A stretch of DNA of 64,000 nucleotides from the IMG/VR virus record IMGVR_UViG_3300012286_000299, positions 109,277-173,276 of that record; one strand, given 5' to 3'. Below the pieces are notes generated by a model. It had not been told where the DNA came from and searched no databases. It worked only from the letters and a program-made list of their open reading frames with translations. Positions 1,760-30,324 of this stretch are shown one piece after another (positions within the stretch are counted from its first letter, which is position 1; every line of letters begins with the position of its first letter). Source of the DNA: a virus. Taxonomy: Duplodnaviria; Heunggongvirae; Uroviricota; Caudoviricetes. A program made the translations under genes and the position numbers.

Positions 1760-1790
1760 GTATATTTAAGTATATTAATTTAAAATAAAG
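1757..1790 (+). promoter_or_regulatory. conserved phage promoter-like element (ttcgtatatttaagtatatt...aaaggttATG)
   Basis: First of more than 30 copies of the same motif found about 15-35 nt upstream of ORF starts. Confidence 0.5.
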
Positions 1791-1793
1791 GTT

Positions 1794-2054: not shown

Positions 2055-2059
2055 AAGTT

Positions 2060-2413
2060 ATGTTTAAAAAATTATTCGCTTACAAACCAACAGAGCAAGA
2101 ACAGCAGTTTATAGACATTGTTAAAGATTTATTAAATCATCCTGACACTGTAGTGAGAATGTCTTTTTATTCAAGAAAGTACTTTTTGACTAACGAGAAA
2201 AAGCATTACTATATGATGCTACAATGGCCAAATGTACAAGTAACTAATACTAAGTTTTCATTTTGTAAATCAATGCATCCAAAAGCATATGATATAATTT
2301 TAAAATTAGTACATGATTATATTGAAAAAGATCGTCAAGCGTTAGAAGATCATATTTTTGCAAACGAAAATAAAATGCTTGAACAAGTAAGAACTAAATT
2401 ACAATTAGCATAA
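2060..2413 (+). CDS. hypothetical protein
   Basis: 117-aa ORF; its stop overlaps the start of the next gene. Confidence 0.45.
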   Translation: MFKKLFAYKPTEQEQQFIDIVKDLLNHPDTVVRMSFYSRKYFLTNEKKHYYMMLQWPNVQVTNTKFSFCKSMHPKAYDIILKLVHDYIEKDRQALEDHIFANENKMLEQVRTKLQLA

Positions 2414-2652
2414 TGTATACAAAAAATATTTACATAGAAGGATTTTTAACTCGTAATGGGTTTAAAAAAATGAATGAAAATGATTTTGCTAATATGAAAT
2501 GTGTTGTAAAAGTTTTTCCCAAATATTATGAAATAGTATTTAATGATGATGAATTTGGGGAAATGACAATGTATACTGATAATATTTCAATACCTCAATT
2601 AGTAGGTATTTTAACTTGGCACGGTTTAATTGATAAAGATTACAATAAATAA
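2413..2652 (+). CDS. hypothetical protein
   Basis: 79-aa ORF in an ATAATG overlap chain. Confidence 0.4.
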   Translation: MYTKNIYIEGFLTRNGFKKMNENDFANMKCVVKVFPKYYEIVFNDDEFGEMTMYTDNISIPQLVGILTWHGLIDKDYNK

Positions 2653-2927
2653 TGAGAGTAAAACATAGTAAATTTAAAGATTGTGAATTTGTCGTTAGTG
2701 TTGATACTGATGGTAAAAGTTTTACATTAGTAAAAGATCCTTATCCGGCTTATGATGTTAAACCTGATTACTACATTTATTGGAGAAATATAGGAGAAGA
2801 TATTAGAACAGCAGGAAGAACATTATTACGTACTCCTTCAGGACGTAAAGTATCACAAAGTAGAGCTACTAAAATATTACATAATATGATAGCAGCATCA
2901 AAACAACTAACATTTAGCAAATTATAA
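2652..2927 (+). CDS. hypothetical protein
   Basis: 91-aa ORF in an overlap chain. Confidence 0.4.
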   Translation: MRVKHSKFKDCEFVVSVDTDGKSFTLVKDPYPAYDVKPDYYIYWRNIGEDIRTAGRTLLRTPSGRKVSQSRATKILHNMIAASKQLTFSKL

Positions 2928-3160
2928 TGGCAGCACTATCAGACAACAAATACGATGTATTTAATTGGATTATAAAAGTTTATGATTCATGTGAGAATGT
3001 ATCTCAAATAATAACAACAGAAAAATTAATTCGAAACTTTTATAAAATGTACGACGATTATACTTTGTATGATAAGTTACAGGACTATTATTTCGAAGTA
3101 TCAGAAAGACTACAACAAAAAGTAGATAAAAAGACTAGAAAACAAATACTAAAAGGATAA
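2927..3160 (+). CDS. hypothetical protein
   Basis: 77-aa ORF in an overlap chain. Confidence 0.4.
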   Translation: MAALSDNKYDVFNWIIKVYDSCENVSQIITTEKLIRNFYKMYDDYTLYDKLQDYYFEVSERLQQKVDKKTRKQILKG

Positions 3161-3163
3161 ATT

Positions 3164-3565
3164 ATGACATTTATACAGAAATACGTAGACTTTATCTTAG
3201 ATAACATCATACAGGATAATATAAGAGTTCAGCTTTACAAACCTTTTGAAGATGGTTCAAGAATGATTACAAAGATAGGACCTACAGTACATTGTAAAGT
3301 AAAGATTGAAGTAATTGAAAAGTATACACGATCTGCTAAACTAAAACTGACCTTTGATAAATACGAAATCGAAGAACTATTCTTCATACCTTTCAGCTCA
3401 AGTCCAGAATCAATTGAAGGTAAGACACGAACTAAAATTGAAAAGATCGTAAATCAAACTTTCATTGACGATAACAGAACTGAGGATATAAAGCAGATGT
3501 ACGAACAACAACACAAGTTATTAGGAGAAGCACTATCAAAAATAGTAGGTAAGAAAAAAATATGA
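3164..3565 (+). CDS. hypothetical protein
   Basis: 133-aa ORF. Confidence 0.45.
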   Translation: MTFIQKYVDFILDNIIQDNIRVQLYKPFEDGSRMITKIGPTVHCKVKIEVIEKYTRSAKLKLTFDKYEIEELFFIPFSSSPESIEGKTRTKIEKIVNQTFIDDNRTEDIKQMYEQQHKLLGEALSKIVGKKKI

Positions 3566-3912
3566 AGCTAGATAAACAACTCACAACATTAAATCAAGTT
3601 GCTGGTGCTATGTTTTTAGCCAACTCTAGATTTAAAACACAAGCCCATATATCTTCTCAAATGCTAAATCCTGAATGCAATGTAGATCATGAGGAAAGAG
3701 TTAGATATGAAATAATACAAAATCTATCAAAGCATGCAGTTGATACTTTCTCCAAAGAAATTAAAAAACAACAAGTACATGATGGAGAAGTACATTCACT
3801 TGAATTATTTATATTTCCAACTGAAGCATTAAAACTAGCAGTAGAGTACATTATTTCAGAAATGCCACAATCAGAAATAGACAGAATAAGAACAACACCA
3901 ATTTTTATTTAA
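3562..3912 (+). CDS. hypothetical protein
   Basis: 116-aa ORF with an ATGA start/stop overlap. Confidence 0.45.
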   Translation: MKLDKQLTTLNQVAGAMFLANSRFKTQAHISSQMLNPECNVDHEERVRYEIIQNLSKHAVDTFSKEIKKQQVHDGEVHSLELFIFPTEALKLAVEYIISEMPQSEIDRIRTTPIFI

Positions 3913-4002
3913 GATTAAGTAAAATAAAATGGAAAAAGTTTGCTTATTTAGATTTTTCTTCGTATATTTAAGTATTATAAATTTAAAAAATAAATAAAAA
4001 TT

Positions 4003-6273: not shown

Positions 6274-7509
6274 ATGGAAAAGAAAAACAACATAGATTCT
6301 CAGTATATTAAGCTACTAGAGGATATTTTAGAAAATGGTATTAAAAAACAAACAAGAAATGGTGAAACTATTTCAGTATTCGGAAGACAAATACGTCACG
6401 ATATGAAAGACGGTTTTCCGTTGCTTACAACCAAGAAAATGCCGTTCAAAACAATCGTAACAGAACTTCTTTGGTTCTTACGAGGTGATACCAATATTAA
6501 GTATTTGGTTGATAATAATTGTCATATTTGGGATGGTGATGCTTATAAGAATTATATAAATACCGCACCACCTACATTAGATGGGAAGTATTTATCACAA
6601 CCAGAATTTATTCATTGGATAAAAACAGATGATGAGTTTGCTAAGAAGTGGGGTGAGTTAGGTCCAATTTACGGTAAGCAATGGAGAGATATTCCTGTAA
6701 TAAAAGATGGAGATGTAGAAGGTCATAAGATATTAAGTAGTATAGACCAAATCCAAAACCTAATCAACGACCTTAAAACAAATCCAGACTCAAGACGATT
6801 AATGGTTAATGCTTGGAATGTTGGAGAATTAGACCAAATGGTTCTTCCACCTTGTCATTATGGATTTCAAGTTTATACTAGAGAGTTGACTAAACAGGAA
6901 CGTTGGATGGCTTATTGTAATAAATGTAATGAATTAAAAACAGAATCAATTATAGGTTCTACCGATGATAAAGTAATGGAAAGTTATTATCAAGAATATA
7001 ACATACCAACACGAGCAATCTCTTTAATGTGGAATCAACGTTCAGTGGATACATTCTTAGGTTTACCATTTAATATTGCTTCTTATGGATTGTTGTTGGA
7101 AATCATTGCTGAAATCGTTAACATGGTTCCTGACCAATTGATTGGTAATCTTGGTGATACACACTTGTATTCAAATCATATTGAACAAGCAAAAGAACAG
7201 ATTGGAAGAGAGCTTAATGAAGATGAGAGATATGAATTAGTAACCCAGCAAATGAGTAAACTAAGAGCGATCAGAGATGAAGATTACATTAATTACAATA
7301 TTCCAACTAGAACAAGACAACCTTATTCTTTACCTAAAGTAAGAATCAATACTGAATTCTGGAACCCTGGTACAGAAGATGGATGTGGAATGGGACCAGG
7401 AACTTATACAAAAGATATAGGTGCTCTTGTAGAAGGAATGGAAGTAAATGATTTTCAAATTGAGGATTATCAATCACATCCAACAATCAAAGCACCCTTA
7501 TCAAATTAA
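6274..7509 (+). CDS. thymidylate synthase (ThyA) family enzyme with two large insertions (TS, or dUMP hydroxymethylase-type)
   Basis: ThyA motifs are present: LWFLRGDTN, GPIYGKQWR, SRRLMVNAWNVGEL..LPPCH (active-site Cys), QRSVDTFLGLPFNIASY (Asn, hence dUMP-type) and GDTHLYSNHIEQAKEQ, with a ThyA-like C-terminus DFQIEDYQSHPTIKA. It is 411 aa against about 265 aa for ThyA, because of inserts of about 45 aa and about 60 aa. Confidence 0.75.
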   Translation: MEKKNNIDSQYIKLLEDILENGIKKQTRNGETISVFGRQIRHDMKDGFPLLTTKKMPFKTIVTELLWFLRGDTNIKYLVDNNCHIWDGDAYKNYINTAPPTLDGKYLSQPEFIHWIKTDDEFAKKWGELGPIYGKQWRDIPVIKDGDVEGHKILSSIDQIQNLINDLKTNPDSRRLMVNAWNVGELDQMVLPPCHYGFQVYTRELTKQERWMAYCNKCNELKTESIIGSTDDKVMESYYQEYNIPTRAISLMWNQRSVDTFLGLPFNIASYGLLLEIIAEIVNMVPDQLIGNLGDTHLYSNHIEQAKEQIGRELNEDERYELVTQQMSKLRAIRDEDYINYNIPTRTRQPYSLPKVRINTEFWNPGTEDGCGMGPGTYTKDIGALVEGMEVNDFQIEDYQSHPTIKAPLSN

Positions 7510-12501: not shown

Positions 12502-13026
12502 ATGATTACAAAACCCAATGTACCTTTTATTGACGAGGTAGAAGAATTTAATGCCGTGATGGGCAAACCAAACAATTATGAACCAATTATTCCCGAAAGA
12601 AAAGAGTGGGAGTTCGTGTACAATTTCATCCTTGAGGAACTTGAAGAATATCGAGAAGCTTGCGAAGCAGGAAACATCGTGGAAGTTTTGGATGCTTTGT
12701 GCGATATTACTTATGTTGCCACTGGGAACGGTGCTATGCTACATGGCCTTAAGGGTAAGGTATGGCCGGCATATCAAGAAGTACAAGCTTCAAATTTATC
12801 GAAAGCTTGCCAAACTGAAGACGAAGCTAAAGCAACTGTCATTCAAAGATCGAGTGAACAAGGTGAAGAATGTCATTACGAAAAAGTTGGAGAATATTTC
12901 ATCGTATATCGAACAAGAGATAGAAAAGTAATGAAAAACGTAAATTACTTCAAACCAAACTTAAAACAATTCTTTACAGATAAAGAAATTCAAAAATCAT
13001 ATTTAATACAAATAACAGGAAATTAA
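12502..13026 (+). CDS. MazG-like nucleoside triphosphate pyrophosphohydrolase (putative)
   Basis: An all-alpha NTP-PPase-like motif: EELEEYREACEAGN..EVLDALCDITYVATG (E-E-x-x-E ... D metal-site pattern). Confidence 0.45.
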   Translation: MITKPNVPFIDEVEEFNAVMGKPNNYEPIIPERKEWEFVYNFILEELEEYREACEAGNIVEVLDALCDITYVATGNGAMLHGLKGKVWPAYQEVQASNLSKACQTEDEAKATVIQRSSEQGEECHYEKVGEYFIVYRTRDRKVMKNVNYFKPNLKQFFTDKEIQKSYLIQITGN

Positions 13027-13041
13027 TTTAAACTAGAAAAC

Positions 13042-13464
13042 ATGACAGCAATACAAGTATTAGGATTAATAGCATTTATAATAGCATTATCAGGTGTATT
13101 AGGGTTCTTATTTCAAGCCGGAAACGACGAAGAAGAAGAAGTTACATTTACTACTCCTGAGTATACTAAAGAAGAACTAGAAAATATTAAAGCTGCTGAA
13201 GCAGAATATAATAAACCTGTAGTAGCCGAAGAACTTGAAGTTACAGAACCTGAATTTGTAGCAAAAGGACTTAGTAGTACACCAGTAGCTCCGGAATTTC
13301 CAAACATAGGAAAGGATCTTACAAAAGTATTCCCACCAGATGCAACTATTAACACAGAAGAAATAGTAGAAACTAAATTGAAAAAGGTAAAAGAACCTAA
13401 ATCAGAGTTTCCAATTGATAAACCAAAGAAAAAAAGAAAATATTATCCTAAAAAAGCAAAATAA
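13042..13464 (+). CDS. membrane-anchored acidic protein
   Basis: N-terminal transmembrane helix, then a low-complexity E/P/K-rich region ending KKKRKYYPKKAK. Confidence 0.4.
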   Translation: MTAIQVLGLIAFIIALSGVLGFLFQAGNDEEEEVTFTTPEYTKEELENIKAAEAEYNKPVVAEELEVTEPEFVAKGLSSTPVAPEFPNIGKDLTKVFPPDATINTEEIVETKLKKVKEPKSEFPIDKPKKKRKYYPKKAK

Positions 13465-13539
13465 TATTAAATAAAGGTTAATTTTACATTATGGACTGAA
13501 TTAATTTAATTATTTTATAATCTGTCCATATTTATATGC

Positions 13540-14085
13540 ATGGATAAAAAAGTATGCAGTAAATGTAAAATTGAAAAAACTTTAGAAGAGTTTTCAATAG
13601 ATTTGTCTACTAAAAGTGGTAGAAAAAGTCAATGTAAAGAATGTAGAAAATTAATTTCTAAAAAGGAATATAAAAGTGATCCTTTATCTCATAATGTTAG
13701 AACTAGTGCTTATTATAAGGATAATAAAGAGTCTACTAGGAAGCAACAACGTGATTATGAAAGAAAACGTTTAAAAGTAGATCCCTTATTTAAATTAGGA
13801 AAATCAATGAGATGTCATTTGTATAGAATATTACAAGGACAAAAATCCATGAGTACTAAAGAATTATTAGGGTATAATGTTGAAGAATTAAAAATTCATA
13901 TTGAATCTCTTTGGGTAGAAGGAATGAATTGGGAAAATTGGGGTAAAGAATGGGAAATTGATCATATTTATCCTCTATCTCAATATTTAAAAGAAGGAGA
14001 AACTAGGCCTAGTATAATTAATAGTCTTAAAAATCTTCAACCTATAAGTAAAATTGAAAATCGAAAAAAATCAAATAAGTTATAA
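13540..14085 (+). CDS. HNH homing-type endonuclease
   Basis: N-terminal Cys4 (CSKCKIEK...CKECRK) and an HNH core EIDHIYPLSQ...NLQPISKIENRKK. Paralogous to 50911..51546. Confidence 0.65.
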   Translation: MDKKVCSKCKIEKTLEEFSIDLSTKSGRKSQCKECRKLISKKEYKSDPLSHNVRTSAYYKDNKESTRKQQRDYERKRLKVDPLFKLGKSMRCHLYRILQGQKSMSTKELLGYNVEELKIHIESLWVEGMNWENWGKEWEIDHIYPLSQYLKEGETRPSIINSLKNLQPISKIENRKKSNKL

Positions 14086-15812
14086 TGTATAAGAATATTG
14101 TTACGAATTCATTAGGGAAAAATAGATATAAGGTCATTTTATACACTGATGATGGAGTTGAAGAACATGAATTTCAAAATTATGCATATGAAGTGTGTAG
14201 CCAAAACCAGGCTACACATTTTGGTCTAAATGGAGAACCTTTAATGAAAACTACTTATTGGGATAAAACCAATCCCTTTATTCATTATCATGATATGCCT
14301 ATTCATCAAAAATTTTTAATTGATAAATATGGTACTAATGATGAACCCTCAACTACACATCAAGAAATATTTTTTGATATTGAGATTGAAATGGGAGGTG
14401 CTCTTACACCTGAGTACATTAGAAAAGCTCCAAAACCTGTTACTTCAATTGCTTGGTGGCATAAACAAGAAGATAAATGGTATATTTTAATTTTAGATAA
14501 AGATAATAAAATTGAAAAAACTACTATAGAGAATAAATATATTATTCCTGTACCTAACGAAAGAGAATTATTAAATAAGTGGTTAAATTATTTGAACAAA
14601 GTTAACCCTGATATCTTAATTGGCTATAATAGTGATTACTTCGATATACCTTACCTATACTATAGAATACTAAATCAATTAGGTGAACGTAGAGCTAATG
14701 CTTTCTCTCCAATAGGTAAAGTTAAAGAACAAAAACATTCAAATGAATCAGGAATGGTTTTTTGGAATGAAGAACAACCTATAAGAATAGAAGGAATGTA
14801 TTCTTTGGATTACATTCGCTTACATAAAAAATATTCGTTTGCAGATGAACCATCTTATAAATTAGATGCTTTAGGAGAAAAGTATTGTAAATTAGGTAAA
14901 ATTGAATATGAAGGTAGTTTAGACAGATTATTTGAAACTGATAAAGAAAAATTCATTGAATATAACTTTCGAGATGTTGAAATCCTAAAAGCACTTGATA
15001 ATAAATTTAATTATATTAGTTTAACTAAAAATCTAGCTCATAAGGGTAAAATCCATTATGATGATGTTTATCAATCATCTAAAATTCATGATGGAGCTAT
15101 TTCAGCATTCTTATTATCAGAAGATATAATTCCTCCTTCACGAGATAGAAACCCAATTAAAAAAGCTAATTACGCTGGTGGTTATTTGTTTTGTCCTAAA
15201 GCAGGGTTATATCGCTATATGTTTGATGAGGATTTAACTTCACTATACCCATCAATTATTATGTCTCTTAACATTGGTAAAGAAACATTAATAGGTAGAA
15301 TTATTGATTTAAATGATAGAAACAATCATTTAGGTTTAAATGATTTAATAAATGATATTGAAGATAGACCTCGTACTATGGAATGGTTTACTAATAAAGA
15401 TAAGTTCAGTAAAATTGATTGGACTTCTTCTAAAGTAGTTAAACTAATTCAACAATATAATTTGGCTATCTCAGCAAATGGTGTTATCTTTCGTACAGAT
15501 AAAGAGTCTGTATTATCAACTATTCTGAATAAGTGGTTTGATGAAAGGGTTTTATACAAAAATAAAATGAAAGCTGCATATAAAGCAGGAGATACAGTAG
15601 GTGGTGAGAAATATCATTTATTGCAATATACAATGAAAATCTTACTTAATTCACTTTATGGTGCTACAGCATTACCTTCATTTAGATATGGGAATGTAAT
15701 TCTATCAGAAGCAATCACTTTAAGTGGACAACGTATTATTCAAGAATCAGCACTTTGTGCTAACAGACATATGAACAAAGTTATTCGTGGTGAAATTAAA
15801 TTAGAGATATAA
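14085..15812 (+). CDS. family-B DNA polymerase, N-terminal fragment (3'-5' exonuclease plus polymerase motifs A and B)
   Basis: Exo I FDIEIEM, Exo II YNSDYFDIPYL, motif A DLTSLYPSIIMSLNIG, motif B KILLNSLYGA. Stop lies 50 aa after motif B. Confidence 0.85.
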   Translation: MYKNIVTNSLGKNRYKVILYTDDGVEEHEFQNYAYEVCSQNQATHFGLNGEPLMKTTYWDKTNPFIHYHDMPIHQKFLIDKYGTNDEPSTTHQEIFFDIEIEMGGALTPEYIRKAPKPVTSIAWWHKQEDKWYILILDKDNKIEKTTIENKYIIPVPNERELLNKWLNYLNKVNPDILIGYNSDYFDIPYLYYRILNQLGERRANAFSPIGKVKEQKHSNESGMVFWNEEQPIRIEGMYSLDYIRLHKKYSFADEPSYKLDALGEKYCKLGKIEYEGSLDRLFETDKEKFIEYNFRDVEILKALDNKFNYISLTKNLAHKGKIHYDDVYQSSKIHDGAISAFLLSEDIIPPSRDRNPIKKANYAGGYLFCPKAGLYRYMFDEDLTSLYPSIIMSLNIGKETLIGRIIDLNDRNNHLGLNDLINDIEDRPRTMEWFTNKDKFSKIDWTSSKVVKLIQQYNLAISANGVIFRTDKESVLSTILNKWFDERVLYKNKMKAAYKAGDTVGGEKYHLLQYTMKILLNSLYGATALPSFRYGNVILSEAITLSGQRIIQESALCANRHMNKVIRGEIKLEI

Positions 15813-16075
15813 TGGCATTAAAAGGACAATCAATTAGAAACGGGGTTACTATTAATATAAATGGTGTTAAAGCCGAAAAACAATTAGTTATTGATTTATC
15901 TGAAAATTGGGATGAATCACAAGAAAGATTCTTTAAGAAAATGCTTAAACAAGGAGGAAAATGTAAAGTTAATGGAAACTCATTTGAAATTATCCTCAAA
16001 GAAAGATCTGATATAGATTCAAAAGGAAATAGACCTATTAATTTACCACCAGTACCAGGAGAAAGAACATTTTAA
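15812..16075 (+). CDS. small ORF inside the polymerase split
   Basis: 87-aa ORF in a different frame, exactly filling the 264-nt insertion between the two polymerase cistrons. Confidence 0.35.
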   Translation: MALKGQSIRNGVTININGVKAEKQLVIDLSENWDESQERFFKKMLKQGGKCKVNGNSFEIILKERSDIDSKGNRPINLPPVPGERTF

Positions 16076-16076
16076 T

Positions 16077-17012
16077 ATGAAACATTTAGAAGATACCCCA
16101 TGGTGGATATGTGATGAAGGTGATTTTAATTTTTGTGCTTATGTTGATACAGATTCTAATTATTTCAATGCTGAGCCATTATTGAAACATTTATATCCTG
16201 ATTTTGATGAAAAAACTGATCAAGAAAAAGATGATTTATTAGAGAAAGTAGCTCTTAAGTACCAAGATATTATAACTGAACACTATGATATACTTGCTAA
16301 AGAAGCCTTTAATATTAGTACACACCGATTAGAAATGAAAACTGAGTGTGTTATTCGTTCTGCTTATTTTAGAGCTACAAGACGTTATGCTCAATGGATT
16401 ACTAAAAAAGAAGGTATAGCAAAAGAGGAATTAGACATTAAAGGATTAGAATTTAAAAAAGCTAATTTCCCTAAATATTTTGGAAAGTTTTATCAAGAAA
16501 TTCTTGAATTAATCATTAAAGGTACTTCACAGAGTATTATAGATAAGAAAATTCATGAATTTAGACAAGAAGCAACCTCAACTGATATAGATTTTACCCT
16601 TATAGGTAACCCAACATCAGTTAAAACATTAAATGAGTATATAGCTTCCCACCCTAAACCAGGTAAAATATTATCTGAAATAAAATCAGGAGCTGGTGCA
16701 TCAGTTAAAGCTTCTATCAAACATAATGATTTATTACGATTTTGGCAATTAGATTCAAAACATAGTCAAATAGTACAAGGTGATAAAGTAAAATGGGTTT
16801 ATTTAAAAAATAACCCTTATAATATAGAAGCTATTGCATTTTTAGAATTTGATATGGCTGATAAAATCAAAGACTTCATTAATGAATATATTGATAGAGG
16901 GAAAAGTTTTGAAACTATATTACAGAAAAAACTACAAGGCTTCTATGATGACCTTGAATGGATGTTACCACCAGCAAATCCACTAATACATAAATTTTTT
17001 ACATTCAACTAA
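16077..17012 (+). CDS. family-B DNA polymerase, C-terminal fragment (motif C plus thumb)
   Basis: Own ATG; motif C CAYVDTDSNYF 22 aa from the start; KKANFPKYF (KxY-like). Confidence 0.8.
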   Translation: MKHLEDTPWWICDEGDFNFCAYVDTDSNYFNAEPLLKHLYPDFDEKTDQEKDDLLEKVALKYQDIITEHYDILAKEAFNISTHRLEMKTECVIRSAYFRATRRYAQWITKKEGIAKEELDIKGLEFKKANFPKYFGKFYQEILELIIKGTSQSIIDKKIHEFRQEATSTDIDFTLIGNPTSVKTLNEYIASHPKPGKILSEIKSGAGASVKASIKHNDLLRFWQLDSKHSQIVQGDKVKWVYLKNNPYNIEAIAFLEFDMADKIKDFINEYIDRGKSFETILQKKLQGFYDDLEWMLPPANPLIHKFFTFN

Positions 17013-17734
17013 TGGATAAAACAATATTAACACAAATAATTGAAAGCTTTTACTTAAATGGATTAACATCTCAAGTTAAATTTAAGGTAAAAAACAACGA
17101 AGCTCACATTAAATTTGCAGTCGACAATAAGGATTGCATAGGAGAAGTTATTGCGCCTATAACTTTAGAAGATTGCGAGATTGGTATTTTTAATACTAGT
17201 CAATTACTTAAATTAATTAATATAACTAATGATTTTATTGATTTAAAATTAGAAAAAAATGGTATTCACTTTTTAAAACTTCATATTAGTGATAACCAAT
17301 TTGATTTATCATATAATTTAAGTGATTTAGGGTTAATTCAAGATCCTGGTGTAGTTCCTAATTTACCTCCTCATGATTTAGAATTTGATATTAATTTTGA
17401 TTTTACTCAAAAATATATTAAAGCACATAACGCATTAGATAAACCACCTCGTTTTGAAATAGGTGTATCTAAAGATTTTAAAAATGATGAAGTTATAAAT
17501 TTCATGATTGGTGAAAAATCATCTTATTCAAATAAAGCAAATTTTGCAGAATCTGGGAAAATTATAAATAAAATAAAACCTATAGCATTTAGTGCTAATA
17601 ACTTTAGAGAAGTAATATCTGTAAATAAAAATGCAGTAGGTAAGGTATGTGTTTATAAAGATGGGTTGTTAAAAATTAATCTAGAAGAAGCAGGAGTAAA
17701 ATCAGAATATTTTCTTGTAGCTTTACATGAGTAG
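17012..17734 (+). CDS. putative sliding clamp / polymerase accessory protein
   Basis: 240 aa, translationally coupled (TAATG) to the polymerase, similar in size to gp45-type clamps. No diagnostic motif. Confidence 0.3.
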   Translation: MDKTILTQIIESFYLNGLTSQVKFKVKNNEAHIKFAVDNKDCIGEVIAPITLEDCEIGIFNTSQLLKLINITNDFIDLKLEKNGIHFLKLHISDNQFDLSYNLSDLGLIQDPGVVPNLPPHDLEFDINFDFTQKYIKAHNALDKPPRFEIGVSKDFKNDEVINFMIGEKSSYSNKANFAESGKIINKIKPIAFSANNFREVISVNKNAVGKVCVYKDGLLKINLEEAGVKSEYFLVALHE

Positions 17735-17806
17735 TAATATTTATGACAAATGACCTAAGGGCAATTAATAACGAGTAGCAAAAGCACTCACAAAACGTAA
17801 ATCAAT

Positions 17807-18214
17807 ATGAGTACAAAATTTAATGAATTTGACATTCTATTCCACAATTTCTTTTACCCAACAAGTGGATTCGGTTCAGCAGCAACCACAAAACAACCTC
17901 ACCCTTTAAATATCTTTTATGACGATAACGGACTTCACTTTGAAGTAGCGTGTACTGGTCTTACTAAAGATGAGGTAAATGTAGATATCGAGGATGATAT
18001 CTTAAAAATTAGTTATAATAAAGCAGAAGAAGAAAAAGAACTTCATCCTGGAACAATCGTAAGAGGATTGTCTAAAAAATCTTTTAATTTAGGTTATAAA
18101 ATTTCAGCTAAATATGATTTGTCATTAGCACTAGCAAAACTAGAAAATGGTTTGCTAGAAATTTCTATACCTGTAGCTGAAAAAGCAAAACCAAAATCAA
18201 TAAAAATAAAATAA
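17807..18214 (+). CDS. small heat-shock protein (Hsp20/alpha-crystallin family)
   Basis: Alpha-crystallin domain pattern: DDNGLHFEVACTGLTKDEVNVDIEDDILKIS...ENGLLEISIP. Confidence 0.65.
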   Translation: MSTKFNEFDILFHNFFYPTSGFGSAATTKQPHPLNIFYDDNGLHFEVACTGLTKDEVNVDIEDDILKISYNKAEEEKELHPGTIVRGLSKKSFNLGYKISAKYDLSLALAKLENGLLEISIPVAEKAKPKSIKIK

Positions 18215-18299
18215 AAATCTAAGCCCTTAGGTTAAGTTTTATTTGGAGATTCAAGAAAAATTTATTATATTATATAATAAAAATTTAATTATAAAAGTT

Positions 18300-18602
18300 A
18301 TGGCAAATCCTCAATTCAAAGGTAGACAAAAAGGATCTATCAAAAAAACATCAACAATTTCCGATCCATCATTGGGTAATTTTAAAATTATCGTAGATGA
18401 TGAAAGTTATAATCTAGTTTTAACTGACCCTGAAACTGGAAAGGAAAAAATTATTGGTTATTATACTAGATTAACTAATGCTTTAAAGTATGTAGTTAGA
18501 ACCCAAACAGTTGAGAAAAAACCAACTTATACTATTAAAGAATATATCCAAGAATTAGAAACAGTTTTAAACAATTTAAACAATTTAATTAACAATGAGT
18601 AA
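18300..18602 (+). CDS. hypothetical protein
   Basis: The track ORF 18243 starts inside the upstream hairpin and leader. The ATG at about 18300 (MANPQFKG...) follows an AT-rich leader. Confidence 0.4.
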   Translation: MANPQFKGRQKGSIKKTSTISDPSLGNFKIIVDDESYNLVLTDPETGKEKIIGYYTRLTNALKYVVRTQTVEKKPTYTIKEYIQELETVLNNLNNLINNE

Positions 18603-18888
18603 ATTAGAATCAAGAGGTGGTAGTATCATCTTAAAACAACTTGAAGAAAATGAAATGAAAGTTGGTAACATCATTATCCCTGATAATGGTCATGAAAAAT
18701 CACTTGTAGCTGAAATTATAGCAGTATCAGATGTATTTAATTGGCATAGAGGAGAATTTGTACCATCAGATCTAAAAATAGGTCAAAAAGTAGTAATCCC
18801 ACCAATGGGAGCACAAAAATTAACATTAGATAATGTAGATTATTTAATCATTTCACAAGAACAAATCCCAGCAATAATAGTAGATTAA
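18595..18888 (+). CDS. groS: co-chaperonin GroES (Cpn10)
   Basis: 97 aa with the GroES fold pattern: GGSIILKQ..EMKVGNIIIPD...EIIAVSD...GQKVVIPPMGAQKL..DNVDYLIISQEQIPAII. Directly upstream of groEL. Confidence 0.75.
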   Translation: MSKLESRGGSIILKQLEENEMKVGNIIIPDNGHEKSLVAEIIAVSDVFNWHRGEFVPSDLKIGQKVVIPPMGAQKLTLDNVDYLIISQEQIPAIIVD

Positions 18889-18890
18889 TT

Positions 18891-20531
18891 ATGACAGAAA
18901 CAGTATTTGGACCCGAATTAAAATCAAAACTATTAGAAGGAGTTAGAAAACTCAATAATAGTGTATCATCTACCCTAGGACCAGCAGGTAGAACAGTATT
19001 AATTAAAGGTGAGTATGGTCAATTAACCGTAACTAAAGACGGTGTATCCGTAGCTAAGGCTTTTAAAGAATTAGAAGATCCAGTAGAATCTACAGGTGCA
19101 GAATTAGTACAAAAAGTATCAGTTAAATCCGCAAATGAAGTTGGAGATGGAACAACTACAGGTACTTTATTAACCTATGCTCTTTTAGAAGAAGGTTTAA
19201 AACATGTTAATGCAGGACAAAATGCAGTAGAAATTAAAAAAGGTATTGATGCTGCTGTAGAAGAAATTAAATCCTCACTTAACAATTTAACAGAAGATAT
19301 TTCTGATAACCAACAAATTAAAGAAGTTGCTACTATTTCAGGTAATAACGATGAAGAAATTGGTAATTTAATTGCTACTGCTTTAGAAAAAGTAGGCAGA
19401 GATGGAGTAGTTGCTATTGAAGAGTCTAAATCAGGCGAAACTTCACTTGAAGTTGTAGAAGGTATGCAGTTTGATAGAGGTTACAAATCACCTTATTTTG
19501 TAACTGATAATAATACAATGACAGCTGTATTAGATAACCCATATATTTTAATTTATAATGGTAGAATTACTAACCACCAAGAATTAATTCCAGCTTTAAC
19601 TTTAGCTAACACTGAAAAACGTTCATTATTAGTAGTAGCAGAAGATATTGATGGTGAAGCATTAGCAGTAGCTATTGTTAATAAAATGAGAGGTATTGTA
19701 AATGTTGTTGCTGTTAAAGCTCCTGATTTTGGAGATCGTAGAACAATGGCTTTAGAAGATTTAGCTATTATTACAGGTGGTCAAGTTTTATCTAAAGATA
19801 AGGGGCATAAATTAGAAAAAATTGATGTTAATACCTTAAAACAATGTTTAGGTACATCTCGTACTGCTACAATTGGAAAAGAGAAAACTACTATTGTAGA
19901 TGGTAAAGGTGAAGAAGAAGCTATTACAACTAGAGCTCAAGAAATTAAAAAACAAATTGATGACGCTGGTTCACCATTTGAAAAAGAAAAATTACAAGAG
20001 CGTTTAGGTAAGATGATTGGTGGAGTAGCTATTATTAACGTAGGTGGTAATAGTGAATTAGAAATCAAAGAGAAAAAAGATAGAGTAGAAGATGCTTTAT
20101 TCGCTACAAGAGCTGCTTTAGAAGAAGGTATTGTAGTAGGTGGTGGTACTGCTTTATTATATGCTAGAAAATCTATTACATTTGAAGGTGCAAATGATTT
20201 TGTTTTAGGTAAAAAAATAGTTTATAAAGCTGTAACAGCACCCTTCCAGAAAATTTTAACTAATGCCGGACACGATCTTGTAGAAGTACAATATTTAGGT
20301 TCTAAATTAACTGATTCTGAAAAAGGAAGTAATTGGGCAGGTCTTAATTATAAAGATTTATCAACAATGGATTTCAAATCAGCAGGTATTATTGATCCTA
20401 AAAAAGTAACTCGTATTGCATTAGAAAATGCAGCATCAGTTGCAGGTACAATTTTAACAACTGAATCTGTAATCTACGAGAAAAAAGAAGACAATAAAGA
20501 AGAAATCAATCCTATGCAAGGAATGATGTAA
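18891..20531 (+). CDS. groL: chaperonin GroEL (Cpn60)
   Basis: LGPAGRTVLI, AVKAPDFGDRR, GGGTALL and the C-terminal Gly-Met tail PMQGMM, in 546 aa. Confidence 0.9.
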   Translation: MTETVFGPELKSKLLEGVRKLNNSVSSTLGPAGRTVLIKGEYGQLTVTKDGVSVAKAFKELEDPVESTGAELVQKVSVKSANEVGDGTTTGTLLTYALLEEGLKHVNAGQNAVEIKKGIDAAVEEIKSSLNNLTEDISDNQQIKEVATISGNNDEEIGNLIATALEKVGRDGVVAIEESKSGETSLEVVEGMQFDRGYKSPYFVTDNNTMTAVLDNPYILIYNGRITNHQELIPALTLANTEKRSLLVVAEDIDGEALAVAIVNKMRGIVNVVAVKAPDFGDRRTMALEDLAIITGGQVLSKDKGHKLEKIDVNTLKQCLGTSRTATIGKEKTTIVDGKGEEEAITTRAQEIKKQIDDAGSPFEKEKLQERLGKMIGGVAIINVGGNSELEIKEKKDRVEDALFATRAALEEGIVVGGGTALLYARKSITFEGANDFVLGKKIVYKAVTAPFQKILTNAGHDLVEVQYLGSKLTDSEKGSNWAGLNYKDLSTMDFKSAGIIDPKKVTRIALENAASVAGTILTTESVIYEKKEDNKEEINPMQGMM

Positions 20532-20573: not shown

Positions 20574-21485
20574 ATGTTCAATAAAAAACACACTATTTGG
20601 GTAGAAAAATACAGACCAGATACTTTAGAAGGGTATATTGGTAATGAATTTTTTGTAGAGAAATTAAATCAATGGGTAGGAGATAATGATATCCCTCATC
20701 TATTACTTACAGGTCCTGCTGGTACAGGAAAAACAACTGCTGCTAAATTAATAGTAAATAATATTAATTGTGATTTTATCTACATTAATTGTTCAGATGA
20801 AAATGGTGTTGATACTATTAGAGATAAAGTAAAATCGTTTGTTTCCGCTGCTAGTTTTAAACCACTTAAAGTGGTTATAATGGATGAAGCAGATTTCTTA
20901 ACACTTAATGCTCAAGCATCTTTAAGAAACGTAATTGAAACTTATAGTTTAAATGCTCGTTTTATATTTACTTGTAATTTTGTAGAAAGAATTATGGAAC
21001 CAATTCAATCTAGAACAAATATATTTGAATTAATGCCTCCTTCTATGCAAGATGTAGCATTCAAATGTGTTGAAATTTTAGATTTAGAAAAAATTACTTA
21101 TACTAGAGCAGATATAGTAAGAATTGTAAAACAAACTTACCCTGATATTAGAAAGTGTTTAAACTTACTCCAAATATCTATTAGAAATGGAGAATTAATT
21201 GAAAGTAGAACTTCATCTAATTTTAAACAAACCTCTGACCAAGTAATAGAATTACTTAAAACTAAAAACGTTAAAAACTTTACTGCTATAAGACAGTTAG
21301 TAATGGATTCTAATGTTAGAGATTACAACGAGTTATATAGAGTATTATTTGAAAGAGCAGATGAATTTAATGAATCTGCTGTTACTACTCTTATAATAGC
21401 TGATTACCAACACAAATCAATTATGGCACCTGATAAAGAAATTACATTTTGTGCCTGTATCGCTAAATTATTAACAACTAAATAA
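20574..21485 (+). CDS. clamp-loader AAA+ ATPase (RFC/gp44-like)
   Basis: Walker A LLLTGPAGTGKTT, Walker B VVIMDEADFLT and sensor IQSRTNIF (an SRC-like SRT). Confidence 0.75.
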   Translation: MFNKKHTIWVEKYRPDTLEGYIGNEFFVEKLNQWVGDNDIPHLLLTGPAGTGKTTAAKLIVNNINCDFIYINCSDENGVDTIRDKVKSFVSAASFKPLKVVIMDEADFLTLNAQASLRNVIETYSLNARFIFTCNFVERIMEPIQSRTNIFELMPPSMQDVAFKCVEILDLEKITYTRADIVRIVKQTYPDIRKCLNLLQISIRNGELIESRTSSNFKQTSDQVIELLKTKNVKNFTAIRQLVMDSNVRDYNELYRVLFERADEFNESAVTTLIIADYQHKSIMAPDKEITFCACIAKLLTTK

Positions 21486-23619: not shown

Positions 23620-25044
23620 ATGAAAGAAGGTTATATACCAAAAGAACAAAGAAAAAAGATATTATTCATTTGTGATGATATCAGAATGCACTCGGGTGTA
23701 GCTACAATGGCTCGAGAAATAGTTTTAGGAACCTCTCACCATTATAACTGGGTAATAATTGGAGCAGCTATTGATCATCCTGAATCAGGACAAAGATTAG
23801 ACTTATCTGATGCTACTAACAAAGAAACTGGAAATGAGGATACAAATGTAATTATCTATCCTAGTAATGGATATGGAAGTGCTGATTTAATCAGATATAT
23901 GATAAAGAATGAAAAACCTGATGGGTTAATGTTCTTTACGGATCCAAGATATTATGACTGGTTATTTGCTATCGAAAATGAAGTAAGAAAACAAATACCA
24001 ATGATTTACTTAAACATTTGGGATGATTTACCTGCTCCACTTTATAATAGAGCATTCTATGAATCATGTGATGCTTTATTAGCTATCTCAAAACAAACCA
24101 AAAACATTAATGAAATGGTTTTAGGTAAAAAAGCAGATGGTAAAGTTATCTCTTATGTACCTCATGGTATTAATGAAAAAATGTTTTATCCTATAGAAGA
24201 TAAAACACAGTTACAAGAAACTAAGAAAAAATTATTTGGAGATAAAGAATTTGATTTTGTATTATTCTTTAATTCACGTAATATTAGGAGAAAATGTACT
24301 AGTGATTTATTAGCAGCTCATAAAATGTTTTTAGATTCTTTACCTAAAGAAAAAGCTGATAAAATTGCCTTAGTATTACATACACAAGTTGTAGATAATA
24401 ATGGTACTGATTTAGATGCTGTTAGAACTTTATTATTTGGTAAGAAATCAAACATATTCTTTTCAGATCAAAGAATTGATACTGCTGAGTTAAATAGAAT
24501 TTATAATATATCTGATGCTGTAGTATTACCTTCTTCAAATGAAGGATGGGGATTAGCAATAACTGAAGCTATGATGGCTGGTAAAATGATAATCGCTAAT
24601 GTAACTGGAGGTATGCAAGATCAAATGCGTTTTGAGGATGAAAATGGTAAATGGATTGAATTAACACCTGAATTTCCTTCTAATCATTTTGGTACTTATA
24701 AAAAATGTGGTAAGTGGGCTGTACCTGTATTCCCTAATAACATGTCATTAGTAGGTTCACCTATAACTCCTTATATTTGGGATGATAGATTAGATTTTAG
24801 AGACTTAGCAAATGCTATTAATCAGGTTTATGAATTATCTCCTGAAGAAAGAGTAGAAAATGGTAAAGCAGCTAGAGAATGGGTAACTTCTGATGAATCT
24901 GGTATGAGTGCTAGAATGATGTGCAATAATGTAATTAAAGATATTGATTTAACTTTAGAAACATTTAAACCTAAAAAATCATTTGATCTACTTTTAGTAG
25001 AAGATTTGGAACCTCTAGAATTAGTTCATAAATTAACGTATTAA
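23620..25044 (+). CDS. glycosyltransferase, GT-B fold (GT4-like)
   Basis: E-x7-E motif region LPSSNEGWGLAITEAMMAGKMII; 474 aa. Confidence 0.7.
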   Translation: MKEGYIPKEQRKKILFICDDIRMHSGVATMAREIVLGTSHHYNWVIIGAAIDHPESGQRLDLSDATNKETGNEDTNVIIYPSNGYGSADLIRYMIKNEKPDGLMFFTDPRYYDWLFAIENEVRKQIPMIYLNIWDDLPAPLYNRAFYESCDALLAISKQTKNINEMVLGKKADGKVISYVPHGINEKMFYPIEDKTQLQETKKKLFGDKEFDFVLFFNSRNIRRKCTSDLLAAHKMFLDSLPKEKADKIALVLHTQVVDNNGTDLDAVRTLLFGKKSNIFFSDQRIDTAELNRIYNISDAVVLPSSNEGWGLAITEAMMAGKMIIANVTGGMQDQMRFEDENGKWIELTPEFPSNHFGTYKKCGKWAVPVFPNNMSLVGSPITPYIWDDRLDFRDLANAINQVYELSPEERVENGKAAREWVTSDESGMSARMMCNNVIKDIDLTLETFKPKKSFDLLLVEDLEPLELVHKLTY

Positions 25045-25102
25045 TTAGATAAGATAAGTTTTCCATTGGGTACATATATTTATTATCATAAATACGTACC
25101 TA

Positions 25103-25774
25103 ATGGATTATCAAAGAATTTACAACCAATTAATAGAAAAAGCTCAAAGTAGAACCTTAGAAGGTTATATTGAAAAACATCATATTATCCCTAAATGTCT
25201 AGGAGGAAGTAATGATAAAGAAAATTTAGTAGAATTAACAGCAAGAGAACATTTTTTATGTCATATGTTACTTTGTGAGATTTATCCTAAAGAAAATAAA
25301 CTAAAACATGCCTTATTTTTAATGTCTATTGGTAAACAAAGGATTAAAGAAAAACATTATGTTGTTGGTTCTAGAGTTTATGAAAGGCTTAAAACTGAAT
25401 ATTCTCAATTTTTAACAGGTAAAAAACAATCACAAGAAACTAAAGATAAAAAGAGTAAAGCTATGTTAGGAATTTGGGAAGATAAAACCCAAGAAGAAAA
25501 ATCTAAGATAGGACAAAAAAGATGGGACACTAGAATCAAAAATGGGACTACTAATATTAAAAGTATTAATAGAAGTAAATCATTAAAGGGTAGAGAAATT
25601 ACATGGGACCGAGGAGTTAATAAAATCATTATTCAATATGATAAACAAAATAACTTTATTAAAGAATGGTCTAGTATATCAGAAGCTCAAAGGCAAATAG
25701 GAGGGGATATTAAAGGTGCTTTAGCAGGGAGGCAAAAAACTGCTGCAGGTTTTATTTGGAAATACAAAAACTAG
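25103..25774 (+). CDS. HNH homing-type endonuclease
   Basis: EKHHIIPKCLGGSNDKENLVELTAREHFLCH (HNH core) plus a C-terminal IENR/NUMOD-like region. Sits between two glycosyltransferase genes. Confidence 0.6.
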   Translation: MDYQRIYNQLIEKAQSRTLEGYIEKHHIIPKCLGGSNDKENLVELTAREHFLCHMLLCEIYPKENKLKHALFLMSIGKQRIKEKHYVVGSRVYERLKTEYSQFLTGKKQSQETKDKKSKAMLGIWEDKTQEEKSKIGQKRWDTRIKNGTTNIKSINRSKSLKGREITWDRGVNKIIIQYDKQNNFIKEWSSISEAQRQIGGDIKGALAGRQKTAAGFIWKYKN

Positions 25775-25797
25775 TTATTATATTAAAATAAAAAAAA

Positions 25798-27105
25798 ATG
25801 AAAAATACATTTGTGATATCATGTCCCATAGATTGTTATGCAGGGTATGGAGCACGTTCACGTGATTTAGTTAAAGCGTTAATTAATTTAGATAAATACG
25901 ATGTTAAAATAATGCCTCAACGTTGGGGAAATACACCTTGGAGTTTTATTGAAGATCATCAAGAAGAATGGGGATTTTTACAACCACATATTTTAACAGG
26001 TCAGTTAACTCAACAACCTGATATTTGGGCTCAAATAACAGTACCTAATGAATTTCAAGCTATTGGAAAATATAATATTGGAATAACAGCGGGTATCGAA
26101 ACTACTATTTGTGCTCCTCAATGGATTGAGGGTATGAATAGAATGAGTTTAAATTTAGTTTCATCAGAACATGCTAAAAAAGTATTTCAAGATTCTAAAT
26201 TTCAAAAACATGATGAAAGGACTAAACAAGTTGTTGGTGTAATAGAATTAACATCTCCTATTGAAGTATTATTTGAAGGAGTAGATATTGTTAAATACTT
26301 TGCATCTACATTAACTCCTACTTCCGAAATAAAGCAAGCCTTAGATAATGTAAAAGAAGAGTTTGCATTTTTATTTGTGGGTCATTGGCTTCAAGGTGAT
26401 TGGGGTCAAGATAGAAAAGATGTAGGAGGGTTAGTTAGAGTATTCTTAGAAGCCTTTAAAAATAAATCTAAAAAACCTGCTCTTATATTAAAAACAATGT
26501 CAGGTCCAACTAGTATTATAGATAGAGATAATATCTTGAAAAAAATAGACGTTATAAGACAATCTATGCCTACTAAAAACTTACCTAATATTTACTTATT
26601 TCATGGTGAAATATCAGACGATGAAATGAATCAATTATATAACCATTCTAAAGTAAAAGCAATGGTTAGTTTTACTAAAGGAGAAGGATTTGGTAGACCT
26701 TTACTTGAATTTACTCAAACTAAAAAACCAGTTATTGCTTCAAATTGGAGTGGACAATTGGATTTCTTAAACCCTGAATTTACTTCATTAATACCTGGTA
26801 CTTTAACTAATATTCATCCATCTGCTCAAGTTAAGGATATGTTAATTGATGGTTCACAGTGGTTTACAGTAGATTATGGATTTGCTGGTGGTATATTAAG
26901 AGATTATTTTGAAAATTATAAAAAATATCAAGATAATGGTAAACGTTTAGCACATTATTGTAAAACTAATTTCTCATTTGAGAAAATGCAAGAAAAATTA
27001 GATACTATATTAACTGCTAATATACCTGAGTTTCCAAAGCAAGTGCAATTGAAATTACCTCAATTAAAAAAGGTTGAGTTACCTAAATTAAAAAAAGTAG
27101 AATAA
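25798..27105 (+). CDS. glycosyltransferase, GT-B fold (putative)
   Basis: FTKGEGFGRPLLEFTQTKKPVIASNWSGQLDFL resembles the GT4 E-x7-E donor-binding block; 435 aa. Confidence 0.5.
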   Translation: MKNTFVISCPIDCYAGYGARSRDLVKALINLDKYDVKIMPQRWGNTPWSFIEDHQEEWGFLQPHILTGQLTQQPDIWAQITVPNEFQAIGKYNIGITAGIETTICAPQWIEGMNRMSLNLVSSEHAKKVFQDSKFQKHDERTKQVVGVIELTSPIEVLFEGVDIVKYFASTLTPTSEIKQALDNVKEEFAFLFVGHWLQGDWGQDRKDVGGLVRVFLEAFKNKSKKPALILKTMSGPTSIIDRDNILKKIDVIRQSMPTKNLPNIYLFHGEISDDEMNQLYNHSKVKAMVSFTKGEGFGRPLLEFTQTKKPVIASNWSGQLDFLNPEFTSLIPGTLTNIHPSAQVKDMLIDGSQWFTVDYGFAGGILRDYFENYKKYQDNGKRLAHYCKTNFSFEKMQEKLDTILTANIPEFPKQVQLKLPQLKKVELPKLKKVE

Positions 27106-27106
27106 A

Positions 27107-27559
27107 ATGAAAGATAAATTATCTATATGCCCACGTTGCGGGAGTGATGCTTGTTATGTCACTCCTGTAAATGAAGTAAAAAACAACTATTTCTGTTTTG
27201 GATGTGGTTTTCAAACAAATGACCTAATGAAAGAAGGTGAATTTGATTTTGAAACATATGAAGAACCATTACCTGAACTATATAAAGATCTTAAAAACAC
27301 TGATTCAGAAAAACGTGTTTGGTATCCAATTACTATTAATATTCAGGATAAAGGAACGGTATTTGCCAATGGAAAAACCAAAGATAATTGGACATGGGCA
27401 GGAGTAAAGGCCGTTGAAGTAAGCGAAGAAGAAAAAGGTAAATTTAAAATACCTGGTACTGAAGATTACTATACTCATAAAACTGATATTAAATCTTTAA
27501 AGAATTATCCACAAGATGATTTTATTGAAGCCCTAGATTATATAGGTTTTTATAATTAA
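27107..27559 (+). CDS. zinc-ribbon protein
   Basis: CPRCGSDACYV...CFGCGF at the N-terminus. Confidence 0.4.
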   Translation: MKDKLSICPRCGSDACYVTPVNEVKNNYFCFGCGFQTNDLMKEGEFDFETYEEPLPELYKDLKNTDSEKRVWYPITINIQDKGTVFANGKTKDNWTWAGVKAVEVSEEEKGKFKIPGTEDYYTHKTDIKSLKNYPQDDFIEALDYIGFYN

Positions 27560-27562
27560 TAT

Positions 27563-28180
27563 ATGAGAATAAGTTATGCAATTCCTGTTTGTAATGAACA
27601 TGAAGAATTAATGAGATTACTAAGCATCCTCATCACCAATAAAAGAGATGAGGATGAAATAGTAGTTCAATGTGATCAGGGTAATACTACACCTGAAGTA
27701 TATAAAGTATTAGACCAATTTTTTGGTAGAATAAGTGTTATAGAATTTCCATTAAAAGGTAATTTTGCGGCTTTTAAAAATAATTTAAAGAAGCATTGTA
27801 CTGGAGAATGGATTTTTCAAATTGATGCTGATGAATACGTAACTATTGAATTTTTACAAAGTTTACATTTAATTTTACAAGATAATCCTACAACAGAAGT
27901 ATTTTTGCTTCCTAGAATTAATACTGTAGAAGGATTAACTCAAGAGCATATTAATAAATGGAGATGGAATGTAAATGAGAAAGGATGGGTTAACTTCCCA
28001 GATTTACAACCTCGTATACTTCAAAATTCACCTAAAATTAATTGGGGTAATAAAGTACATGAAGTACTAATGGGTCATAGTACATGGTCTACTTTACCAT
28101 TAGAAGATGATTATTGTCTGTATCATCCAAAACATATTGAAAGACAAGAACGACAAAATAATTTATACGATTTATTATGA
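27563..28180 (+). CDS. glycosyltransferase family 2-like (putative)
   Basis: N-terminal ISYAIPVCNEHEEL resembles the GT2 ...IPxYNE... start, with EIVVQCDQGNTT at the DxD-like position. Confidence 0.4.
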   Translation: MRISYAIPVCNEHEELMRLLSILITNKRDEDEIVVQCDQGNTTPEVYKVLDQFFGRISVIEFPLKGNFAAFKNNLKKHCTGEWIFQIDADEYVTIEFLQSLHLILQDNPTTEVFLLPRINTVEGLTQEHINKWRWNVNEKGWVNFPDLQPRILQNSPKINWGNKVHEVLMGHSTWSTLPLEDDYCLYHPKHIERQERQNNLYDLL

Positions 28181-30322: not shown

Positions 30323-30324
30323 AA

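Follow-up and report, generated by a model that had tools for sequence, protein, structure and literature searches.

The window analysed here, a 64,000-nucleotide (nt) stretch of the virus record IMGVR_UViG_3300012286_000299 to which all positions refer unless another locus is named, carries a family B DNA polymerase (PolB) gene that is divided over two cistrons. All genes of the locus lie on the plus strand. PolB-N (14085–15812; 575 amino acids, aa) encodes the N-terminal domain, the 3'-5' exonuclease, palm motif A, the fingers and motif B, and PolB-C (16077–17012; 311 aa) encodes the rest of the palm, motif C and the thumb. The 264 nt from the stop codon of PolB-N to the ATG of PolB-C are filled by a third open reading frame (ORF), ORF87 (15812–16075), a conserved orphan of 87 aa in a frame different from that of PolB-N. 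Its start overlaps the stop of PolB-N as TAATG (15810–15814), and its own stop, TAA at 16073–16075, is separated by a single nucleotide from the ATG of PolB-C (TAA-T-ATG, 16073–16079). An HNH/His-Me-finger endonuclease gene (13540–14085; 181 aa) abuts the ATG of PolB-N on the 5' side, and an ORF of 240 aa (17012–17734) follows directly 3' of PolB-C. A first, sequence-only reading of this DNA had proposed a split between motifs B and C, with 264 nt and an internal 87-aa ORF between the halves. Pfam, PHROG and the motif positions agree on the two cistrons and the site of the split, and the ORF coordinates agree on the spacing.

Two halves of one polymerase

PolB-N matches the Pfam families DNA_pol_B_exo1 (1.5e-21) and DNA_pol_B (6e-22). 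On phrog_262, an 856-position DNA polymerase profile of PHROG, it covers positions 22–567, and PolB-C covers positions 565–846 (1.6e-45). Judged by this coverage, the two halves tile one complete polymerase, of which no part is missing or duplicated, and the DNA between them is extraneous to the enzyme, as originally proposed. The motifs expected of a family B polymerase of the T4 gp43 type are all found. PolB-N carries the exonuclease motifs Exo I (FDIE within FDIEIE; pattern DxE), Exo II (NSDYFD within YNSDYFD; NxxxFD) and Exo III (YNFRD; YxxxD), as well as polymerase motif A (DLTSLYPS; DxxSLYPS) and motif B (KILLNSLYG at 15636–15662; KxxxNSxYG), while PolB-C contributes motif C (YVDTDS at 16140–16157; YxDTDS), a KKRY-like TRRYAQ and the C-terminal aromatic peptide HKFFTFN. 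Every catalytic motif is intact, and the metal-binding aspartates of motifs A and C reside on different chains. In tblastn, PolB-C is 36.7% identical to the C-terminal third of the contiguous PolB of Microcystis phage Mel-JY01; the ratio of its non-synonymous to synonymous substitution rates (dN/dS) is 0.12.

Where exactly is the chain broken? Residues 514–567 of PolB-N align with residues 556–609 of RB69 gp43, residue 567 corresponding to RB69 C609. After this block RB69 goes on with GTEGEAFVLYGDTDS, whereas the phage studied here reads RGEIKLEI, stops, and then has MKHLEDTPWWICDEGDFNFCAYVDTDS. Because the alignment with RB69 ends at C609, the break maps to the palm loop that connects the helix after motif B to the beta-strand of motif C (RB69 ~610–614). 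The C-terminal tail RGEIKLEI of PolB-N (15786–15809), delimited by comparison of the junction with RB69 and with the contiguous PolB of L048 (L numbers denote related loci from the search described below), is absent from contiguous PolBs; it is conserved in the clade and shows an alternating hydrophobic pattern. The N-terminal tail of PolB-C, MKHLEDTPWWICDEGD (16077–16124), was delimited in an alignment of 20 diverse clade members with contiguous relatives, in which it is for the most part likewise without counterpart. The clade consensus is [RK].E[IL]KLE[IL] for the tail of PolB-N and TPW[WF]IC, which is strongly conserved, for that of PolB-C. Together the tails make the protein ~18–20 residues longer at the break than in contiguous relatives, with ~8 residues on PolB-N and 12–16 on PolB-C. 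The distance from motif B to motif C, first described as a normal spacing of ~72 aa, is thus ~20 residues longer than in contiguous relatives, and each half bears a tail of its own. Divergent PolB-N tails and divergent PolB-C heads occur in the same lineages, a pattern that is suggestive but that common ancestry could also produce.

Could a split intein join the two halves after translation? Protein trans-splicing is known from the PolB of Nanoarchaeum, and marine metagenomes contain fractured phage genes whose split inteins flank an endonuclease (PMC2677866); intein-like inserts also occur in the PolB gene of a distant huge-phage relative. At the break described here, however, the extra residues are far too few for intein halves, Pfam at E<=0.1 detects no Hint or intein domain in PolB-N or PolB-C, and the coverage of phrog_262 leaves no unexplained domain. 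We therefore consider trans-splicing very improbable.

A shared break in related phages

To place the split among its relatives, IMG/VR was searched with PolB-N and with ORF87, which yielded more than 200 loci whose parts were mapped by tblastn. These loci collapse to 134 non-identical junctions, in which PolB-N is 50–96% identical to that of the phage studied here. The order PolB-N, ORF87, PolB-C, 240-aa ORF recurs across the related loci. The break falls at one and the same residue in all 134 junctions, without a single contiguous gene among them (0/134), which speaks against a recent insertion in this one genome. An unsplit PolB was found only in distant relatives, namely L048 (850 aa, 35% identity), L090 (45%) and Microcystis phage Mel-JY01 (848 aa, 34%), and the two collinear cistrons on the same strand correspond to a gene that is contiguous in these three. 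This distribution shows the break to be ancient, and a fixed trait of a large clade of T4-like marine phages that are uncultured and AT-rich. The GC content of the window is ~29%, and the longest related contigs measure 165–173 kb. A DNA-level search of GenBank phages gave no match, the clade has no cultured relative above ~37% protein identity, and a literature search found no description of its split PolB. Hints at the host conflict: one NCBI contig is labelled Candidatus Pelagibacter, and matches in GTDB comprise one metagenome-assembled genome (MAG) of the Flavobacteriaceae and one unclassified bacterial MAG.

In a single metagenomic contig, a lone stop codon or frameshift can mimic a split gene. 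The recurrence of the break in 134 non-identical junctions from many independent metagenomes argues strongly against an assembly or sequencing artefact, a danger to which the sequence-only reading had itself pointed. A decaying pseudogene is hard to reconcile with intact catalytic motifs and the low dN/dS of PolB-C, and the 64-kb window yielded no other PolB. We regard the likelihood of an artefact or a pseudogene as negligible.

T4-like phages carry group I introns and the translational bypass of gene 60. By analogy, the 264 nt might be a small self-splicing intron, or might be bypassed or frameshifted, so that one contiguous polymerase is made; the halves do lie in the same frame in this phage. 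That observation, although correct, has no significance, since the relative frame of the halves is 0, 1 or 2 in 57, 44 and 33 of the 134 junctions, and the shared frame seen here is a coincidence. The distance from stop to start ranges from −4 nt (an ATGA overlap) to 4214 nt. Because all three frames and this whole range of gaps occur, readthrough, frameshifting or bypass cannot be general, and the genes inside the relatives' gaps are unrelated. An Rfam scan of the gap gave no intron match even at E<=10, only noise, and with a z-score of +0.92 the gap RNA folds no better than shuffled sequences. Furthermore, the interval codes for an ORF that is under purifying selection and has homologues at the protein level; the frame of this ORF is closed 5 codons 5' of its ATG, and PolB-C has its own ATG at the stop of the preceding gene. 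Splicing, rated the less likely option from the start, is accordingly highly unlikely, and so is a bypass or frameshift.

In one relative PolB-N itself is interrupted: at L206 (2005–4845), segments corresponding to residues 10–183 and 181–570 lie 1.1 kb apart, the interruption falling in the exonuclease region.

The gene in the gap

ORF87 might be taken for mere filler, but it belongs to a conserved protein family. Among 1.84 billion representatives, this family forms 61 clusters at 50% identity, of which nearly all have ~100 aa or less and two have 120–123 aa; at 90% identity, 212 clusters were counted. Homologues share 39–94% identity, and a dN/dS of 0.19 (compared to 0.12 for PolB-C) indicates purifying selection. 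The family has the conserved core QSIR.G...K...S..W...Q..FF[RK]KMLKQGG and frequently ends in PG..[RT]F. An AlphaFold2 model (pLDDT 66) predicts a beta-beta-alpha-alpha-beta-beta core followed by a C-terminal tail without regular secondary structure. Sequence and profile searches of Pfam, PHROG and PDB returned no relatives of ORF87 and no nuclease signature, and its model gave no fold match.

Three candidate identities for ORF87 were tried and rejected. Weak matches to a viral insert of DNA_pol_B_3 (3/35 members, E ~0.1) were judged to be due to chance. A missing piece of the polymerase was ruled out, the two halves already covering the phrog_262 profile. A frameshift fusion with PolB-N was discarded in view of the closed frame upstream of the ORF87 ATG, and no slippery site is visible.

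ORF87 occupies the polymerase gap in 127 of the 134 junctions. In 86 of these 127 the stop of PolB-N and the start of ORF87 overlap or are at most 1 nt apart, and in 89 the distance is no more than 20 nt, while PolB-C starts within 35 nt of ORF87 in only 61. In a pattern scan of the ORF87 copies with adequate flanking sequence among the matches listed, 108 of 111 (~97%) were in the polymerase context. The link between ORF87 and the split is nevertheless not strict. One subclade (L024, L028, L033–35, L043, L045 and L046) is split in the same way and yet has no ORF87 in the gap or within ~6 kb; its PolB-N ends and its PolB-C begins in a shared ATGA. Conversely, L090, whose PolB is unsplit, keeps an ORF87 homologue between GroEL and the clamp loader, and a few further copies adjoin ribonucleotide reductase (RNR) genes or a conserved membrane protein.

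Is ORF87, then, a dedicated third component of the polymerase, such as an assembly chaperone, a bridging subunit or a stoichiometric regulator? Its near-constant presence in the gap, the overlap of its start with the PolB-N stop in most junctions, its polymerase context and the purifying selection on it would fit this role, as would the conserved core and the C-terminal PG..[RT]F, which lies on a tail that is predicted, at low confidence, to be unstructured. There is also a precedent in PhiKZ, whose split PolB has extra subunits (PMC13648687). The subclade that does without ORF87, the copy retained beside an unsplit polymerase in L090 and the copies next to RNR or membrane-protein genes all argue against an obligatory subunit, and neither homology nor fold supports any function for the protein. 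We therefore hold a dedicated third component to be possible but unlikely. Because ORF87 is not strictly tied to the split, we rank an independent small gene in the gap above an obligatory third subunit: ORF87 is a real small protein and most likely an independent gene that rides in the gap, possibly with a role associated with replication.

The membrane protein that neighbours ORF87 outside the gap measures ~330–415 aa and has an N-terminus of the form ...LIAFSALSVSA.AAFYS.SGLSKLF... It was found at L092 (6268–7248), L093 (7989–8996), L219 (3169–4317), L229 (6473–7720, minus strand) and L238 (935–2035). By tblastn the same family also occurs in L010, L065, L084 and L087; the window has no member.

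In relatives the gap holds more than ORF87. Pfam matches identify endonuclease-type genes, namely HNH (L007–9, L143–146), SegE-like GIY-YIG (L110) and T5orf172 (L044), alongside small or uncharacterised genes (a Smr-like ORF of 71–73 aa, a DUF6165 protein and a SET-domain protein). Metabolic genes are found there too, encoding an enzyme of the DAHP/KDO8P-synthase family, a transaldolase, a cupin resembling mannose-6-phosphate isomerase, and an FkbM methyltransferase fused to a glycosyltransferase. This cargo mostly enters between ORF87 and PolB-C. These contents show that insertions have come to be tolerated between the halves, where ORF87 nearly always stands directly after PolB-N.

A bolder proposal would be that the broken gene is a maintained genetic platform, not just a scar that the phage puts up with, and that ORF87 is a polymerase-associated factor for assembly, regulation or retention of the cassette, translationally coupled to PolB-N. 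The gap would then be a protected, co-expressed landing pad on which homing endonucleases and host-derived metabolic genes are swapped, and the locus would represent a new organisation of phage accessory genes together with a three-part replicase module. We consider this speculative, and somewhat less likely even than a dedicated third subunit.

At L143–L146 (e.g. L146, 810–7633) up to four HNH-like genes surround the locus, 5' of PolB-N, between ORF87 and PolB-C, and between PolB-C and the 240-aa ORF, in an arrangement that resembles a pile-up of homing endonucleases.

Surroundings of the locus

The endonuclease gene 5' of PolB-N is real, as had been read from the sequence. It matches the endonuclease VII profile of PHROG (1e-18), while its Pfam matches to HNH_4, GmrSD_C and His_Me_b4a2 all remain below the cutoffs. 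It also looks mobile: positions 13476–14064 are missing from L016 as a clean indel of ~590 nt, and most close relatives have no HNH gene 5' of PolB-N. Because it lies upstream of the whole polymerase gene, outside the break, and because most close relatives lack it there, this HNH gene is not the cause of the split, to which it had been tied at first. It is a typical free-standing homing-endonuclease insertion beside a conserved gene, unrelated to the origin of the split.

On the 3' side, the 240-aa ORF is syntenic in nearly all related loci. It is a putative sliding clamp by position only, with no Pfam, PHROG or PDB match to support this identity. Overall, the window holds a replication module of the T4-like type, comprising ThyA, the split PolB, an ORF resembling small heat-shock proteins (sHSPs), GroES/GroEL, the clamp loader and many glycosyltransferases. 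The chaperone block (17807–20531) consists of the sHSP-like ORF, recognised by eye only, a GroES-sized ORF and a GroEL-like ORF of 546 aa, and is followed by the clamp loader (20574–21485). The gene order of L090 matches this chaperone/clamp-loader block, with ORF87 between GroEL and the clamp loader.

Three further features of the window were noted. A 411-aa thymidylate synthase ORF (6274–7509) matches Pfam Thymidylat_synt over residues 10–337, a span that corresponds to only 247 profile positions and therefore points to one or more insertions in addition to a C-terminal extension. An ORF of 354 aa (47–1111) has the catalytic domain of poly-ADP-ribose polymerases (PARP; 1e-16). A long run of glycosyltransferase, HAD/nucleotidyl-transferase and sugar-modification genes extends over 23620–36384 in the replication-side region.

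Proposed expression and assembly of the polymerase

How would such a gene give rise to an active polymerase? In our view the locus is, with high probability, an intein-less fractured PolB gene that yields a two-polypeptide replicase. The sequence-only reading had also arrived at two subunits, and this is still the best reading, given an intron scan without matches, a coding gap under purifying selection and the variety of gaps and frames among relatives. An ancestral contiguous gp43-type gene would have been broken in the palm-domain loop ahead of the motif-C strand. PolB-N, with the exonuclease, motif A, fingers and motif B, and PolB-C, with motif C and the thumb, would then assemble non-covalently in a 1:1 ratio, an assembly on which activity should depend because the aspartates of motifs A and C are on separate chains. 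Association and activity of two such chains are expected by analogy, since comparable split polymerases assemble in this way: 43A and 43B of phage 25 co-purify and are active (PMC2988022), split Pfu polymerase is fully active (PMC3061061), and DNAP-N and DNAP-C of PhiKZ form a stable 1:1 complex (PMC13648687). The conserved tails, RGEIKLEI on PolB-N and MKHLEDTPWWIC... on PolB-C, probably zip the halves together. We base this role on their conservation and on the analogy with the split NrdA of phage Aeh1, in which the tails are essential (PMC3045599).

The three cistrons may be co-translated from one mRNA by coupling of termination and reinitiation. The TAATG and TAA-T-ATG junctions point to such coupling, as does the lack of any promoter-like or terminator-like site on the plus strand of the gap; counts of such sites over 13000–18300 equal those in shuffled sequence. 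In nearly every variant examined, the ATG of PolB-C overlaps or abuts the stop of the preceding gene. The ribosome-binding-site-like leader that had been suggested for PolB-C does exist as a Shine-Dalgarno-like AGGAG, read by eye at 16057–16061 on the plus strand, but it is located within ORF87, 15 nt 5' of the ATG. Since this spacing is long, coupling to the stop codon is the likelier route to the PolB-C start, and as features of translation the stop/start overlaps are more striking than the AGGAG.

As for the origin of the split, the most plausible scenario is that a free-standing homing endonuclease invaded near the conserved DNA of motif C and that the insert was subsequently turned over, as in the fractured-gene model (PMC2677866). 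Two points weigh against our overall view of the locus. While we infer an origin by homing, the gap in this window contains no endonuclease. ORF87, for its part, is linked to the locus and coupled to the PolB-N stop more tightly than a chance passenger would be, and may after all act in the assembly or regulation of the polymerase.

Family B polymerases gain a new natural break point with the palm loop before motif C, and engineers of split polymerases could draw on hundreds of environmental variants with conserved tails. Evidently, a gene essential for replication can remain broken throughout a large clade of widely sampled marine phages, with PolB-N diverging down to ~50% identity, and its gap is a hot spot at which homing endonucleases and auxiliary metabolic genes gather. 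Annotation pipelines and PolB marker phylogenies of marine T4-like phages will miss or truncate the polymerase unless the halves are joined. ORF87, finally, is a well-defined orphan family, and its unusually precise place in the genome makes it tractable for functional work.

Comparison with known split systems

A parallel drawn at the outset was with genes 43A/43B, known from the T4-related Aeromonas and Acinetobacter phages 25, 31, 44RR, 65 and 133 and likewise a T4-type replicase in two collinear cistrons. According to the accounts of Petrov et al. (2006/2010) given in PMC2988022 and PMC3061061, those cistrons lie 2 bp to 3 kb apart, sometimes with a homing endonuclease between them, and the break falls in the fingertip, between the two finger helices and before motif B. 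In the phage studied here, motif B is on the N-terminal half and the break lies ~70 residues further downstream. PolB-N spans phrog_2062 (43A type) and then positions 33–92 of phrog_1918 (43B type), and PolB-C starts at phrog_1918 position 92. Because PolB-N runs into phrog_1918, the break point differs from that of 43A/43B, which is the boundary between the two profiles; the RB69 mapping also puts it elsewhere than the fingertip, and the likeness to 43A/43B does not extend to the site of the split. Unlike 43A/43B, moreover, the present split is fixed in a much broader uncultured clade, and its gap holds an orphan ORF and metabolic cargo.

Like the nrdA-a/mobE/nrdA-b locus of phage Aeh1 (PMC3045599), PolB is broken in the catalytic core without intein or intron, with short novel tails at the break and an active site composed across two chains. 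In Aeh1 the broken essential enzyme of nucleotide metabolism is NrdA, the gap still contains mobE, the gene of the causative HNH endonuclease, and no more than one phage has the split, whereas here the gap lacks an endonuclease, the split is ancient and the function of the tails is proposed by analogy. Genes in pieces with a homing endonuclease in the break are thus matched only in part, for the gap of this phage contains ORF87 alone, though endonucleases occupy that position in relatives. The fractured genes with split inteins described by Dassa et al. (2009) differ in that no intein halves are found here.

The split PolB of Methanothermobacter thermautotrophicus (Kelman et al. 1999, as cited in PMC3061061), compared by description only, is reported to be divided in the palm domain downstream of the fingers, with its two subunits making up an active enzyme. 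PMC3061061 puts its break ~83 residues C-terminal of Pfu residue 467. It differs in being archaeal and in having its genes ~85 kb apart. The PolB of the chimallivirus PhiKZ, composed of DNAP-N and DNAP-C, is likewise a 1:1 complex of two polypeptides with the aspartates of motifs A and C on different chains, but it is split right after motif A, in a large palm insertion, so that the fingers belong to the C-terminal half; its genes lie far apart, an RNase H-clamp protein serves as an additional subunit, and it comes from an unrelated lineage (PMC13648687). In our phage motifs A and B are both on PolB-N. RM378 has the break in its PolB between the N-terminal domain and the palm (PMC3061061), again not at the site described here.

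LR756508.1, an unannotated 484-kb genome of an uncultured huge phage, has its PolB broken in the corresponding loop, after motif B and before motif C. Its halves (ORFs 849–3917 and 6911–8788 of L335, which is LR756508.1 258500–268500) are separated by ~3 kb with 4 ORFs, and the same g45-like gene follows. They are ~30–35% identical, lack an associated ORF87 and carry Hint/intein-like inserts, one of them right after the motif-C 'YTDS', with Pfam scores below the gathering cutoffs. A PolB in two cistrons is itself already known; the features that set this clade apart from the known phage splits include its break point, in the palm loop before motif C.

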